Positions 1,029 through 17,177 of a DNA stretch of 25,419 nucleotides are shown piece by piece (position 1 is the stretch's first letter; every line of letters starts with the position of its first letter). This DNA comes from a virus. A program made the position numbers and the translations under genes. The notes under the pieces were generated by a model. The model saw nothing but the letters and a program-made list of their open reading frames with translations. It did not search any database and was not told the DNA's origin. The DNA is taken from the IMG/VR virus record IMGVR_UViG_3300035670_000091. One strand, given 5' to 3'.

Positions 1029-1104
1029 AGCGTGACCAGCAGGCATCGGAGTGCAAGCCTCCGACACGCACGACTGACCGCCGTCAGTTATCCAATGAAA
1101 GGAA
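1029..1104 (+). repeat. structured intergenic element, copy 1 (tRNA-like minihelix + hairpin + RBS)
   Basis: 65/76 ungapped identity with 1691-1766; stems GCGTG/CACGC, TCGGAG/CTCCGA and CTGAC/GTCAG. Confidence 0.9.
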
Positions 1105-1107
1105 ATT

Positions 1108-1374
1108 ATGAGCACCATCGACCTTCGCACGACTGTTGCGGACCTTATCGCTGAGCTATCCAAGCTCCCTGCTGACCAAGTTGTTGCTGTCCCTGTCCGT
1201 TGGACGTTGGACACTCTCAACGAGTGGTTCGAGGACGAGCTGATTGCGCCCTTGACCCCTGAGCAGTGGGCCGAGGTTTCTACTAAATACCTAGACGGAC
1301 TACCTAAGTTCTTCTGGGAAGACTCCGACGGCACCATGAGAGATGCCCTCGACGGATTCCTAAAGGACGAGTAA
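1108..1374 (+). CDS. hypothetical protein
   Basis: GAAAGGA RBS supplied by the repeat; TAATG coupling to next gene. Confidence 0.75.
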   Translation: MSTIDLRTTVADLIAELSKLPADQVVAVPVRWTLDTLNEWFEDELIAPLTPEQWAEVSTKYLDGLPKFFWEDSDGTMRDALDGFLKDE

Positions 1375-1690: not shown

Positions 1691-1766
1691 AGCCTGACCA
1701 GCAGACATCGGGGTGCGAGTCTCCGACAGGCACGACTGACATCCGTCAGCCATCCTATGAAAGGAA
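1691..1766 (+). repeat. structured intergenic element, copy 2
   Basis: Stems GCCTG/CAGGC, TCGGGG/CTCCGA and CTGAC/GTCAG; compensatory change relative to copy 1. Confidence 0.9.
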
Positions 1767-1771
1767 TAACA

Positions 1772-2062
1772 ATGAGCACAATCATTGACCCCTGCGTGCA
1801 CTGTGGGCAGAGCACAGCCTTCGGCTTTGGTCGATTCGTCAACCGTATTGGGTATGACGATGGCTGGGCCTGCGCTGAGTGTATGGCTTACGAGTGCTTT
1901 GTCTGCGACGAGAAGGTTGACATGGACACCTACGTGTCGGACGAAGAAGAGTGGGGACACTACCACCCACGCTGTTTGCCCATTGAAAAGTGGGACGAAG
2001 CATCCAAGGAGTTCTTCGAGGGCATGAGCTCCGAAGAGCGATTAGCTTTTATGCTTACTTAG
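1772..2062 (+). CDS. Cys-rich putative zinc-binding protein
   Basis: ATG at 1772 follows the GAAAGGA RBS (the track start at 1757 lies inside the RBS); CVHC, CAEC, CFVC and HPRC motifs. Confidence 0.75.
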   Translation: MSTIIDPCVHCGQSTAFGFGRFVNRIGYDDGWACAECMAYECFVCDEKVDMDTYVSDEEEWGHYHPRCLPIEKWDEASKEFFEGMSSEERLAFMLT

Positions 2063-2941: not shown

Positions 2942-3247
2942 ATGTTCAAACCAGCAACTTACCTTGATTACAGCCAAGCGCTGTGCGCCCAAACTGACCC
3001 TGAGCTGTTCTTTCCAGAAGGCGGTGGCTCCACCCAGCAAGCAAAGCAAATCTGCAACGCTTGCCCAGTGAAGAACGACTGCTTGATGGAGGCCCTTGTC
3101 AACAAATACGAAGACGGTGTCTGGGGAGGACTGTCCGCACGAGAGCGCATTCAGTTACGCAGGAGCAAAGATAGTCCGCTAAAGGTAGAGGTTGGCCGAA
3201 GAAAGGGAATACCAAATGTTCACAAGAGGATTAGAAGGAGTTCTTGA
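2942..3247 (+). CDS. whiB: WhiB-family Fe-S transcription factor
   Basis: C..TDPELFFP...C-x2-C-x5-C and GVWGG motif; basic tail. Confidence 0.95.
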   Translation: MFKPATYLDYSQALCAQTDPELFFPEGGGSTQQAKQICNACPVKNDCLMEALVNKYEDGVWGGLSARERIQLRRSKDSPLKVEVGRRKGIPNVHKRIRRSS

Positions 3248-3463: not shown

Positions 3464-3506
3464 GCCCCCATGCCTTGGCTCACGCTAGGGTATGGGGGCT
3501 TTTTTT
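3464..3506 (+). terminator. intrinsic terminator between the HTH gene and the integrase
   Basis: 16-bp stem (3 G-U pairs) 3464-3479/3484-3499 followed by T7. Confidence 0.85.
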
Positions 3507-3522: not shown

Positions 3523-4638
3523 ATGGCCTATGTAACACAGCGAGGTAACCGATTCACTGGTTACTACCGAGACAATCGAGGTAAGAAATACAGCGCAGGA
3601 ACCTTTGACACCAGAGCCGAAGCATTGGCTCATGCAGAGCGAGCAGAGCAGGCAGGCGGAGAAGGCCAGTATCGCCTCACCATGCCGTTGAGCGAGTATG
3701 TCGAAACATGGGTGAAGACTGCCGACCTTCTTCCGCTCACCAAAAAGAACTACCTTTTCACTCTACGGGCTCATGTGTTGCCGTATCTTGGGAAGAAGCC
3801 TGTCGGACAAATCTCTCGTGCAGATGTCCGACAGATGTTGGACAGCTTGCGTATAGCTGGTAAATCGGCTGCGCTCCGCCGCCAAGCAAAAGCTTCGCTG
3901 GGCTCAGCGTTGCAGGAGTTGGTCGAGCTGGACCAGCTAGACATCAACCCAACCCACAAGATAAGCATCAAGTCTGTCCAAGAGACAGCCGTCAGGGACA
4001 TCATCAGTCCGACAGAGTTCAAACAAGTCATTCAATCGTTGCCGACTCCTGGCGCTCAGTTGTTTGCACAGACGCTCATAGCGACAGGACTACGCTTCGG
4101 AGAGGCCACTGAGCTACGTGTAAAGGACTTCAATCCGTCAACGCAAGAGCTATACGTCCAACGCAGAGTGACAGAGCTCGGTGCGCAGAACAATAACGGG
4201 GAACGGTTCCAAGTTATTGCGGGCACCAAGTCGGGTCGCAGAAGAATTGTGACTGTCAGTGTCGAGCTGGCCAAGCTTCTACAGGACCACATCAAAACTC
4301 TCGATGGATTCCCCGACACCCTGCTGTTCAGCAAAGCCACGACTCTCCCGCAACAAACCTTGCTGGCCCGCTCCTCTAGCAACTTCAGCGGTCACCTGCC
4401 GAAGGACTCATGGCGCAGGATGTGGAAGACAGCAGTCCAAAAGGCTGGGTTAGATTGGCTACCACGCACACACGACCTTCGTCATGCTAATGCCACAACA
4501 CTGTTGAAAAACGGAGTGGACCTGCACGAGGTGAAAGAACGACTAGGCCACAGTTCCATAAGGACTACTGAGGTCTATCTTCACAGACTGAAGCATCAAC
4601 AAAGCAAAGCTTCGCAAGCCGTAGCTGAATTCCTATAA
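3523..4638 (+). CDS. int: tyrosine integrase/recombinase
   Basis: AGGAGG RBS before ATG 3523; catalytic R (TGLRFGE), K (GTKSG), HDLRH, LGH and Y (TTEVY). Confidence 0.95.
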   Translation: MAYVTQRGNRFTGYYRDNRGKKYSAGTFDTRAEALAHAERAEQAGGEGQYRLTMPLSEYVETWVKTADLLPLTKKNYLFTLRAHVLPYLGKKPVGQISRADVRQMLDSLRIAGKSAALRRQAKASLGSALQELVELDQLDINPTHKISIKSVQETAVRDIISPTEFKQVIQSLPTPGAQLFAQTLIATGLRFGEATELRVKDFNPSTQELYVQRRVTELGAQNNNGERFQVIAGTKSGRRRIVTVSVELAKLLQDHIKTLDGFPDTLLFSKATTLPQQTLLARSSSNFSGHLPKDSWRRMWKTAVQKAGLDWLPRTHDLRHANATTLLKNGVDLHEVKERLGHSSIRTTEVYLHRLKHQQSKASQAVAEFL

Positions 4639-4683
4639 AAGGAAGAAGGCCCTTCAGCCAAGGGGGGAGCTGAAGGGCCTTCT
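4634..4683 (-). terminator. terminator hairpin between convergent arms
   Basis: Perfect 15-bp inverted repeat 4644-4658/4669-4683, followed on the - strand by TCCTTTTAT. Confidence 0.85.
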
Positions 4684-4733
4684 CGCTTATAGCGATTGAA
4701 TGAAAGGAGCTTACAACACCACTGTTGGAAGCT
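4637..4733 (-). ncRNA. predicted small regulatory RNA with an anti-Shine-Dalgarno seed
   Basis: Upstream promoter match, 5' hairpin, unpaired CCUUUCAUUCAA, small hairpin, terminator with a C-rich loop; no convincing ORF. Confidence 0.6.
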
Positions 4734-4738
4734 TGATT

Positions 4739-4773
4739 AGCTTAGCACTGAAATTTTAGAAAGTGCAAGACAC
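4739..4773 (-). promoter_or_regulatory. sigma70/SigA-like promoter with adjacent GACAC box
   Basis: - strand reads GTGTC-TTGCAC-N18-TAAGCT, with TGn extended -10. Confidence 0.6.
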
Positions 4774-4825
4774 ACCGAAAAAAAGATAATTTTTCCCTCC
4801 ACCATCATCCACTCTTCTCCACGCA

Positions 4826-5496
4826 CTGTTATCAGATACTTAGTCTTCGATGGAAGTGCGAATTATCTGGGTAGTTTCAGACTCAGAAATAGGGTTTTGC
4901 ATCTCCCTCAAAGCCGATGCTCGGTCACCAAAAATAGCTGAAAGAACCCCTCCAGAGGTCTGTCTTTCGGCAGTGATTCTGATGAACTCTTTGTTCTCTT
5001 CTAGCTCCTTCAAAGACTTCACAAGCTTGAACAATCTGTCCACTTCTTGAGACACATTTGGGTCTGCGTAACCACCATTCATTTCCTCAGCAAACCGCAT
5101 GAATGCCACTCTTTGCCCCTGCATTTCAATGATTGCGGTCAATAGAGCCTTGAGCTGTTCCTTAGTTTTTACTTCCACTGGGAGGTTGAATGCACACTCA
5201 TTGTCTGGCTTGAAAGCGGGGCAGTTTGATGCCACAAAACAGGTGTTGCACTGCCTCAAAGACGACATGTTTGACTGCACAATCGGGACTTCCCGAAGCA
5301 CGTCCCGACCATCATCATCGGTCTCAACTATGGTCTTAGTTTTATACCCAAAAACAGGCATTGGAGCCCTGTCAGAGGGGTCTCTTTTGACTACTTCTGT
5401 GGGTCCTGACTTCCGCACTTCAACATCGCTGTTATCAGAAGACCCTAGGTCTAAATCCATCAAACCTGTGTATAGGGTGTCATCGCTGTTATCAGA
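4826..5496. repeat. three direct copies of CTGTTATCAGA
   Basis: Copies at 4826-4836, 5429-5439 and 5486-5496; the last two share 16 bp (CATCGCTGTTATCAGA). Confidence 0.75.
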
Positions 5497-6351
5497 TAGC
5501 ATGTCCTCGATAGAAGGCAATCCACCTTGAATAACTCGTAGCTCAGGCTTCTCTTTGTCCATCTTTGCCTCTAACTGTCGGTAGGACCAGATAGCTACCT
5601 TTGTAGCCTCTAGCGTGTCATCGGATACAAACTTATCGAAATCAAACCCGTTTTTCTCTAACAACGCCTTGTAGCGCTTGCGGGCTTGGTCTTTCATCTT
5701 CTTCGGATAACGGTTCAGCTTGGTGCCATCCCATACGATGGTCTCACCCCGACGCATGGGCGAAATCCAAGCCAGGGTCGATACGTAGTCAAACGGTATC
5801 TGACGGAGGTTATCTGGCTTTGCATACGACAGCGCCATCCATCGGGTGTCCGACACACTCTTCAGCGGCCGAATCGCCGCCGCCAAGTTGGGCACGGCAT
5901 CAACCGTGCTTCCTGGAATGCCGATGTTGACGTATTCTTCTGCCCAACGGCGAAGTAGCGGAACTCCGTAGGACTCATGCCAGACGACCCACATCTTCGG
6001 GTCGTTCAAGAATGCAGCTCTGTTCTGCTGAATCTTTGGTAGGCCCCACTTCTGAGAGTCAAACTCAAGCCAACCTTCGATGCGGTCGTAGTTGAGAGCT
6101 ACAAACTCCTCGTAGTCAGCAGCGTATTCTTCAATCTCTCGGTCACTCATCTCTGATGAGTCCACTTGAGATGCACCAGAGTCTACCCAGACTTTCATGT
6201 CTGAGAAGAAGTGCTCACCAATCAAGTAAGGCTTTGTCTTGGGTAGGCCACGCTTACGTAAGCCCCAGTAATTGAGCATGACGGACGTAACGCCATTACG
6301 CTCTAACAGAGTCCTGTTGGACGGAATCTCTACTCCACCGAAGATAATCAT
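4840..6351 (-). CDS. TGT (tRNA-guanine transglycosylase)-like domain fused to a Cys4/helical C-terminal domain
   Basis: VWVDSGA, VVWH and PFDYVSTLAW follow the order of motifs in phage TGT-like proteins; acidic linker; C-x2-C-x5-C-x8-C cluster. Confidence 0.5.
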   Translation of the reverse strand: MIIFGGVEIPSNRTLLERNGVTSVMLNYWGLRKRGLPKTKPYLIGEHFFSDMKVWVDSGASQVDSSEMSDREIEEYAADYEEFVALNYDRIEGWLEFDSQKWGLPKIQQNRAAFLNDPKMWVVWHESYGVPLLRRWAEEYVNIGIPGSTVDAVPNLAAAIRPLKSVSDTRWMALSYAKPDNLRQIPFDYVSTLAWISPMRRGETIVWDGTKLNRYPKKMKDQARKRYKALLEKNGFDFDKFVSDDTLEATKVAIWSYRQLEAKMDKEKPELRVIQGGLPSIEDMLSDNSDDTLYTGLMDLDLGSSDNSDVEVRKSGPTEVVKRDPSDRAPMPVFGYKTKTIVETDDDGRDVLREVPIVQSNMSSLRQCNTCFVASNCPAFKPDNECAFNLPVEVKTKEQLKALLTAIIEMQGQRVAFMRFAEEMNGGYADPNVSQEVDRLFKLVKSLKELEENKEFIRITAERQTSGGVLSAIFGDRASALREMQNPISESETTQIIRTSIED

Positions 6352-13719: not shown

Positions 13720-14010
13720 CTAGCTTGCTGTAATGGCAAACATAATGGCGCTAATCTCGCCGTCACGGGACTCAATTGTGGTAAACCCAGGCTTACAAGT
13801 AAGGTCTAGGCCACGAGGAGCCACGTATCCACGAGCGATTGCGATTGCTTTAACGGCCTGATTTACAGCGCCTGCACCAACGGCACGGAGCTTTACCTGA
13901 CGGTTCTCATAGACAGCGTGGGCAATTGCTGATGCTACAGATTGTGGGTTAGAGCTAGCGGATACCCGCAGAAATGACTCTTCATTATTGCTGAGGACTT
14001 CTTCTGTCAC
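13720..14010 (-). CDS. spoVS: SpoVS-family (Alba-like fold) protein
   Basis: LRVSASSNPQSVASAIA...AVGAGAVNQAVKAIAIARGYVAP.G.DL...PGF is the SpoVS signature. Confidence 0.92.
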   Translation of the reverse strand: MTEEVLSNNEESFLRVSASSNPQSVASAIAHAVYENRQVKLRAVGAGAVNQAVKAIAIARGYVAPRGLDLTCKPGFTTIESRDGEISAIMFAITAS

Positions 14011-16004: not shown

Positions 16005-16852
16005 TAGTCCTCCTTGTATGGCTCGCAGTGCTTGCACGTGCTGCCAGGGTTGTTATTGCAGTCTGGAACTCGCTTCTCTTCAATCATAGACATTAGTCGC
16101 TCTGCCTTATCGAAGATGTGGCGCACTAGCTCGTAGTCACGCTTGACTGGAGGGAACTCTTTGTAGTCTTGGTCAGCCTTGAGTTCGTAGATAAATACAA
16201 TCTCTTCGATTGGGTTACCCATACGATTCATCAGCTCTAGGTACATCTGCCCCTGCAAGATGTGAGGACCAAATGGGCGACGGATGTTCTTCCATGCCTT
16301 CATGAAATCGCCATCAGCTTCAAAGATAAGGTTAGGTGCTTCGCTACGGATAGTTCCTGGGCCTAGCGACTTAATCTCGATTAGGCAGTCATCTCCGAGG
16401 CCCTTGACCCATCCGTCAGTGTGGCCTGCGATTCTGAGCTTGTCATCAGTTAGGGTGACCTCAGCGTACTCTAGGTGACTGTGGTTGCAGTGCTCACAGT
16501 TAGATGGAGATGTGCCCCAAGTGACCTTCTCACAGGATAAGCACTTGAACTTACCGTGAAGTACGCCCATCTCATAAAACCAGTTCTGCCACTTGGCGTG
16601 GATGTAGTGGCCTTCGTCAAATATGTTCTGAAGTCTTAGGTTTGGCTTCTCTGCAATCTTGGTGTGCCCGTTTAGCAGGAAGTACGAGGCCCTCAGGCAC
16701 CAGTCCCTCTTGATAATTTCAGACGGGTGTAGGACGTCTGTCCTACGGTCGCCTGCTGGGCGCTGCATTAGGTGGCGCTGTAGTGGTCCTGTTAGCTTTA
16801 GCTCAGCTTTCTTGGTGTCGAAAAACTTTGCTAGCTCTGACTTAGTTGGCAT
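16004..16852 (-). CDS. Cas4-like PD-(D/E)XK exonuclease
   Basis: HPSE...C, GHTDG, IEIKS, Q..MY and C-terminal Cys cluster (C-x7-C-x2-C); internal CxxC...CxxC insertion. Confidence 0.85.
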   Translation of the reverse strand: MPTKSELAKFFDTKKAELKLTGPLQRHLMQRPAGDRRTDVLHPSEIIKRDWCLRASYFLLNGHTKIAEKPNLRLQNIFDEGHYIHAKWQNWFYEMGVLHGKFKCLSCEKVTWGTSPSNCEHCNHSHLEYAEVTLTDDKLRIAGHTDGWVKGLGDDCLIEIKSLGPGTIRSEAPNLIFEADGDFMKAWKNIRRPFGPHILQGQMYLELMNRMGNPIEEIVFIYELKADQDYKEFPPVKRDYELVRHIFDKAERLMSMIEEKRVPDCNNNPGSTCKHCEPYKED

Positions 16853-17177
16853 GTGGTGTTTGCTCCAAACTGAATATATATTCTTTCAATGTCATCGTAC
16901 GACGGTACTTGCGGTGCCACTTACGTACCAGAGCGTTTCTCTCTCGGTGCGACATGCCTCCCCAAATTCCGTGGGCTTCCTCTGTTTCAATTGCTTCCCA
17001 AAGGCAGTATGCCCTTACAGGGCAATGGCTAGTCCCTGTCTCTCCCAAGCAGTACGCACGTGCTTTTGCTGCGATGTTTGAGTACAGTTCCTTATCACGT
17101 GGAGGGTAGAACAGCTCGGTATCTGCATCTTTGCAGCGAGCGTCTTCTCTCCACGACATTTCAAAGTTATTTGTCAT
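16842..17177 (-). CDS. whiB: WhiB-family transcription factor (second copy)
   Basis: W...A.C...DTELFYP, CPVR..C and GIWGG.S.RER. Confidence 0.9.
   Translation of the reverse strand: MTNNFEMSWREDARCKDADTELFYPPRDKELYSNIAAKARAYCLGETGTSHCPVRAYCLWEAIETEEAHGIWGGMSHRERNALVRKWHRKYRRTMTLKEYIFSLEQTPHAN

Follow-up and report, generated by a model that had tools for sequence, protein, structure and literature searches.

Several small RNAs of Gram-positive bacteria (RsaE, RoxS, RNAIII, LhrC, 6C) occlude Shine-Dalgarno (SD) sequences by an unpaired, C/U-rich seed, with no need for Hfq. In phages, the c4 RNA is a processed cloverleaf that acts on one operon (ant) in lysogeny, and the T4 RegA repressor acts on early messages as a class through the SD/start region. 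Through the same region, the T4 RegB endonuclease inactivates early phage messages as a class (PMC1702504). P22 sar and lambda OOP exemplify small phage RNAs whose promoter faces the early operon (PMC12197685), and phage antisense RNAs controlling phage genes mostly have a single target according to one review. WhiA/WhiB promoters of Streptomyces and Mycobacterium combine a weak -35 with a GACACGCC-type box that lies upstream of it (PMC10243135, PMC13473873, PMC3781837).

The small RNA (sRNA) predicted here resembles c4 of P1/P7 as a structured phage RNA pairing in trans around the ribosome-binding site of phage mRNA, with RNA and target differing between sister phages (PMC12197685). It differs from c4 in having a hairpin-seed-terminator architecture, its own promoter and several unrelated predicted early targets. 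Membership in the Rfam C4 family was rejected on account of the lacking covariance-model match and cloverleaf fold, as well as the neighbourhood, in which the unit adjoins an integrase and a TGT-like gene instead of the icd/ant target operon. In contrast to the Gram-positive anti-SD sRNAs, the predicted seed corresponds to the 16S rRNA tail rather than to UCCC loops, pairing would continue over the AUG, and both the RNA and its targets belong to the phage. The 6C RNA (RF01066), which has two hairpins with C-rich loops, was discarded as an assignment at 26.9 bits against a cut-off of 47 and with just one loop; this partial match arises from a non-conserved loop absent in relatives L121-L130. 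Rfam returned nothing at E<=1 in the window, and local scans gave sub-cut-off, terminator-driven matches only. With sar and OOP, the predicted sRNA shares its size class and a promoter facing the early operon, but those RNAs are cis-encoded and perfectly complementary to one target, whereas here the predicted targets lie kilobases away and the pairing is imperfect. The T4 agents are proteins; the one proposed here is a base-pairing RNA. The likeness to WhiA/WhiB promoters extends to an A/T-rich tract above the box and a WhiB/WhiB2-class partner encoded nearby, with the differences that the box of the sRNA is on the template strand and directly adjoins the -35 position, that it would drive a phage non-coding RNA, and that the candidate WhiB is phage-encoded. 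The literature searched, which covered few subscription journals, held no description of such an RNA in an actinobacterial phage.

The minus-strand unit and its conservation

The window, that is, the whole stretch of 25,419 nucleotides analysed (IMG/VR record IMGVR_UViG_3300035670_000091), comes from an uncultured phage whose complete family members measure ~90-97 kb. An actinobacterial host is indicated by WhiB genes and by a TGT/DpdA-like gene akin to that of Streptomyces phages BRock and GiJojo. These two are the nearest cultured phages by protein (34%); ordinary genes come after their TGT-like gene, and the gap sequence studied here had zero DNA matches among cultured phages. A plus-strand arm of small genes, read as the early operon, has as its final three WhiB, an excisionase-like helix-turn-helix (HTH) protein and a tyrosine integrase with intact catalytic residues. 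A minus-strand arm, ending with the TGT-like ORF, converges on it, and the predicted sRNA unit sits in the 200-nt gap between integrase and TGT-like gene (Table 1). A strong terminator at 3464-3499 separates the HTH gene from the integrase, which may therefore be expressed apart from the early operon.

Table 1. Coordinates and properties of the features discussed, in window numbering
Feature	Position	Strand	Remark
Leader repeat with T-loop minihelix, copy 1	1029..1104	+	
Best predicted target, start of gene 1108-1374	1094..1118	+	22 bp, -25.6 kcal/mol
Leader repeat with T-loop minihelix, copy 2	1691..1766	+	
Weaker predicted target, start of gene 1772-2062	1757..1785	+	-18.2 kcal/mol
Early-arm WhiB/WhiB2-class regulator	2942..3247	+	matches 8DY9/8DY7, E 5e-22
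Tyrosine integrase	3523..4638	+	left flank of sRNA gap
Predicted sRNA, ~97 nt	4637..4733	-	84-99 nt among relatives; start deduced from distance to -10
Bidirectional intrinsic terminator, common to sRNA and integrase mRNA	4637..4684	both	covariation
Small hairpin	4683..4695	-	restricted to window and L114 lineage
Anti-SD seed (toehold)	4699..4710	-	mostly unpaired; 94% identity
Extended anti-start segment (SD, spacer, AUG, first codons)	4699..4723	-	
5' hairpin	4708..4733	-	sequence variable, pairing kept
-10 hexamer	4739..4744	-	TAnnnT in 10/10, 24-26 nt below box
-35-like hexamer	4763..4768	-	without conservation in relatives
WhiA-type box	4769..4776	+	7/8 match to GACACGCC; 96% pairwise identity
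TGT/DpdA-like gene	4840..6351	-	right flank of sRNA gap

The minus-strand promoter proposed in the initial annotation is present, with GTGTC (4773-4769) adjoining TTGCAC (4768-4763), an 18-nt spacer and TAAGCT (4744-4739). Its description as an extended -10 applies to the window, where TG is directly upstream of TAAGCT, but the TG is not kept in the relatives; nor is the -35 hexamer, in whose place the WhiA-type box is conserved. The fold proposed from 4733 was reproduced (-44.4 kcal/mol, z -6.9, the terminator contributing most), and leaves 4707-4696 unpaired between the 5' hairpin and the small hairpin. The latter, annotated at 5 bp, has 4 bp in the minimum free energy structure with 5 bp possible, and is not conserved beyond the window and the L114 lineage. 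The terminator is as described, its stem being 15-16 bp and its U-rich tail reaching 4637. The C-rich loop proved lineage-specific (missing in L121-L130) and for want of conservation was rejected as a second seed. Sequence comparison also bore out the RNA as ORF-less, having its own promoter and terminator and no conserved ORF. Neither an NrdR box nor a dif site was matched in the gap by eye.

The relatives compared are contigs fetched for ten integrase clusters, whose identity runs from 92 down to 57%. Their comparison establishes the unit, its strand and its conservation: it is kept on the minus strand in 10/10 relatives with 61-92% integrase identity, within gaps of 185-205 nt and in the order box, -10, hairpin, seed, terminator. 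Identity over eight distinct lineages amounts to 96% for the box and 94% for the seed, compared to 32% for the promoter spacer and 38-44% for the seed flanks. A seed diverging among relatives with conserved flanks had been set beforehand as the refuting observation; what was found is the reverse. TAnnnT occurs at its fixed distance below the box in every variant; at random GTGTC sites of the family the rate is 3.6%. The 5' hairpin starts ~6 nt below the -10 in every variant and shifts in sequence while holding its pairing (combined shuffle p 0.0014); owing to G-U pairs, it is more stable on the minus strand in 9/10. It was judged per sequence, and RNAalifold missed it because the MAFFT alignment leaves the hairpin unregistered. 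The terminator shows compensatory changes in 7/12 pairs. Lineage-specific elements are the -35 hexamer, the TG extension, the small middle hairpin and the C-rich loop. From these features of the sequence, a discrete minus-strand RNA is very probably transcribed from the gap.

Relative L132 (57% integrase identity) gave no sRNA homologue at the sensitivity available and carries ordinary early genes behind its integrase. Covariance models R1 and R2 gave terminator matches only on 50 more distant family records, an absence that weighs little as R1 scores the window itself at just 28 bits and many records are fragments. A lax pattern scan of IMG/VR had no match with the unit's architecture. Phage L343, fetched as held-out, carries the same RNA as L117, hence is not independent; its top predicted target is identical to that of L118. 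The distant relative L001 (9150-9225) has a like arrangement in opposite orientation: an anti-AUG plus anti-SD stretch is found on the integrase strand, immediately 5' of the terminator, and could be a 3'-UTR-derived counterpart or chance. A box with equal -10 spacing is found in a distant relative (L342:1400-1570, minus strand, record G003), ahead of a non-coding stretch that contains a T-loop-like motif.

Further observations concern the surroundings. CTGTTATCAGA boxes occur at 4826-4836, 5429-5439 and 5486-5496 of the window. The copy right behind the TGT-like stop is kept in most family loci, phages without the sRNA included, often as a perfect 13-bp palindrome, and these boxes are candidates for an operator or origin-like site. 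Distant relatives (L033, L039, L040 and many others) have a different promoter 60-180 nt after the TGT-like stop, leading into a gene whose N-terminus suggests a putative class II ribonucleotide reductase; in the sRNA-bearing phages, the promoter of the sRNA may have taken the place of this ancestral one. The minus strand of the window additionally encodes a second Wbl protein, nearest to WhiB1 (16842-17177), and a SpoVS-family gene (13720-14010) that is also kept in L114, L121, L122, L128 and L343.

Complementarity to early gene starts

The exact seed complements reported for the window are confirmed: the 10-mer AATGAAAGGA occurs in 25 kb solely at 1094 and 4699, and the 9-mer solely at 1095, 1757 and 4700. 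The seed is, however, identical to the 3'-terminal 8-9 nt of 16S rRNA in actinobacteria (checked for Mycobacterium and Collinsella), so that it is complementary to every strong SD and the 10- and 9-nt matches carry little weight alone; for this reason, specificity is to be sought in the longer anti-start segment. The same SD style is present in distant relatives showing no such RNA.

A 29-nt segment of each RNA was scored against every called start from -24 to +18. The best-pairing start is located in the early arm in 9/10 phages, and early starts outpair right-arm starts at p<0.02 in five of the six testable ones; 7-mer seed matches number 34/150 at early and 5/113 at right-arm starts, early starts having stronger SDs irrespective of the RNA. 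In a double-centred RNA-by-phage matrix, the own RNA is favoured at own early starts to a degree reached in 2/40320 permutations (2/5040 without the window), and taking in the full early arm of the window (L328, 100% identical over 8.6 kb) does not alter this; the relatedness of the phages means that such p-values overstate independence. The effect is nil at right-arm starts (p 0.72) and in gene interiors (p 0.40). The comparison thus establishes complementarity to own early starts as a property of these sequences, and the anti-start segment resembles an early gene start of the same phage. Shuffling outside the seed weakens the best pairing in 6/8 phages and fails to do so in L128 (p 0.29) and L130 (p 0.35). 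In three phages (the window, L128 and L130), mock RNAs made as complements of ordinary early starts give pairing of about the same quality. Mirroring both strands leaves the own-phage effect at the same strength, so that it does not separate RNA pairing from copying of a gene start at the DNA level.

In the window, the predicted duplex spans the AUG of gene 1108 by wobble pairs, and gene 1772 ranks below it, at 4 of 17. In the early arm of the window itself, genes that directly follow a minihelix repeat take ranks 1, 2 and 4 of 17, and a repeat-led gene is top-ranked in 5/7 phages (p 1.7e-4, uncorrected for kinship), compared to 0/7 with the bare 16S tail as probe. The proposal that one sRNA silences a set of genes with a standardised ribosome-binding site is supported to the extent that repeat-led early genes are the preferred predicted targets; the 10/9-nt seed match, as noted above, is not the source of specificity. 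The minihelix leader itself is kept family-wide with compensatory changes (L021, L027, L001, L132), including in phages that showed no sRNA homologue. No single orthologous target is kept across the clade; a DUF6011 gene falls within the top three in 4/7 phages. Scanned over the whole window, the 5' domain of the window's RNA also finds non-start sites ahead of those at gene 1108, such unrestricted scans being noisy. In phages whose early arm is complete, the starts of integrase, excisionase-like HTH and WhiB have low ranks. Considering also the prophage scan discussed below, the suggested lysogeny switch is not supported.

On the plus strand, the seed reads as an SD. The earlier statement that no start codon follows it is true of the window, but 7/10 variants read SD plus ATG at 4-6 nt; the ATG is missing in the window, L114 and L128. 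The peptides that would follow have 10-25 aa, mostly polar, with no shared length or sequence. Unrelated peptides and missing ATGs imply that conservation concerns the mirrored start region rather than a protein. The same properties led us to reject an antitoxin of a type I toxin-antitoxin pair.

WhiA-type box and candidate regulators

On the plus strand, the conserved box is exactly GACACGCC in 7/10 variants, and in three it has a single changed base. GACACGCC is the 8-bp WhiA/WhiB2 consensus of M. tuberculosis (PMC13473873); in the phage family, ~0.001 exact copies of this 8-mer would be expected per 200 nt. As a sequence match, the gap has the GACAC(GCC) box near -35 that marks WhiA/WhiB promoters. 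WhiA sites vary in orientation and spacing, and WhiA activates or represses (PMC10243135, PMC3781837). Each clade member encodes, just upstream of the integrase, an early-arm protein whose nearest match is the WhiB from the solved structure of the WhiA-WhiB activation complex, and in the window this protein is a candidate partner of host WhiA at the box. Its presence in the clade is not evidence of co-occurrence, since sRNA-less relatives also encode WhiB-family proteins there. The location of WhiB within the targeted early arm suggests delayed negative feedback. The opposite sign of control, with the box repressing, is possible, as the box adjoins the -35 position. The WhiB of phage TM4 is an inhibitor of whiB2 expression (PMC8612146).

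The box is also conserved near the early operon head in three phages (L328:3750-3870, L122:130-270, L129:100-240). There, an exact or near WhiA box belongs to a block in which TGTTAC is directly repeated at 11-bp spacing and an inverted repeat of 7 bp lies across a -35-like hexamer, possibly the early promoter with host-regulator sites.

Proposed mechanism and alternatives

On balance, we explain the locus by a trans-acting sRNA of the phage's own that would shut off translation of a subset of early genes after their expression. Transcribed from a sigma-A-type promoter with WhiA box and ending at the terminator shared with the integrase, the RNA would first bind an early SD sequence by its unpaired seed, which replicates the 16S anti-SD tail. 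Next, the 5' hairpin, weak at -5 to -9 kcal/mol, would open and pairing would spread across spacer, AUG and first codons, with 30S loading blocked as the result. Genes right behind minihelix leaders would be the preferred targets. Host WhiA and phage WhiB would turn the RNA on late in the early phase, and the RNA would damp early translation. Taking early shut-off and immunity together, repression of the phage's own early genes by pairing appears likely from the sequences compared. More tentative is the full picture of an early-gene timer, in which a mimic of 16S end and start region co-evolves with the standardised leaders of the phage's processed early messages and is switched on by host WhiA with a phage WhiB made from the very operon that it silences; as part of this picture, the phage RNA would be tied to cell-cycle regulators of the host.

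The same pairing might serve immunity, which we consider unlikely. In a lysogen or carrier state, the RNA would silence leaky early genes and block superinfecting kin in the manner of c4, and lineage-specific changes of the pairing segment would give heteroimmunity. The RNA gene beside an integrase with intact catalytic residues, the host-type promoter and a pairing segment that diverges fast and still tracks its own targets all accord with this idea, but integrase and HTH starts are not favoured targets, no repressor gene was recognised among the proteins examined, and no homologue was seen in distant integrase-bearing relatives. An integrase-alignment scan revealed no related prophage among the GTDB matches listed, the best of which had 27-31% identity. 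Distinct from the preferred early shut-off and rather improbable is the idea that the plus-strand SD-ATG is what matters, or is left over, as a captured or truncated early start or a read-through minigene refreshed by leader recombination, and that the RNA from the antisense promoter has no trans targets. The frequent SD-ATG arrangement, the equal significance of the mirrored test, the comparable pairing of mock RNAs and the ordinary early genes behind the integrase of L132 speak for it. Unrelated peptides and the three variants without ATG speak against it, as do the position of the site behind a strong terminator, the G-U pairs favouring the minus strand, and the retention on the opposite strand of box, -10 and a hairpin that starts exactly at the predicted +1. 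The RNA reading is the more economical given a conserved antisense promoter, strand bias and no conserved ORF behind a strong terminator.

The identity of the seed with the actinobacterial 16S tail over 8-9 nt means that many host SDs could pair, and the RNA might mainly silence strong-SD host mRNAs for host shut-off or redirection, phage-start matches being incidental. We hold this to be very unlikely, for a variable segment that tracks own early starts in each lineage is unexpected of a host-directed RNA. Least probable of all is cis-antisense action on the 3' end of the integrase mRNA (OOP- or sib-like) through ~45 nt of shared terminator. The convergent overlap (4637-4684) exists in all members, but it is locked in hairpins on both strands, and the conserved anti-SD/anti-AUG segment, located outside the integrase mRNA, would be left unexplained.

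Lastly, how actinobacterial phages turn off their early genes, and what role their common WhiB proteins have, is little settled (PMC8612146). The element described here offers a testable answer to both, namely a promoter with WhiA/WhiB box driving an RNA that would occlude early starts as a class, in effect an RNA counterpart of T4 RegA/RegB. If true, an RNA with multiple targets matched to the lineage would represent a design unlike the mostly single-target phage antisense RNAs, and it would provide a compact scaffold for silencing in actinobacteria that does not depend on Hfq. This short RNA has a named best target and ten natural variants exist, so that cognate and non-cognate pairs are at hand.
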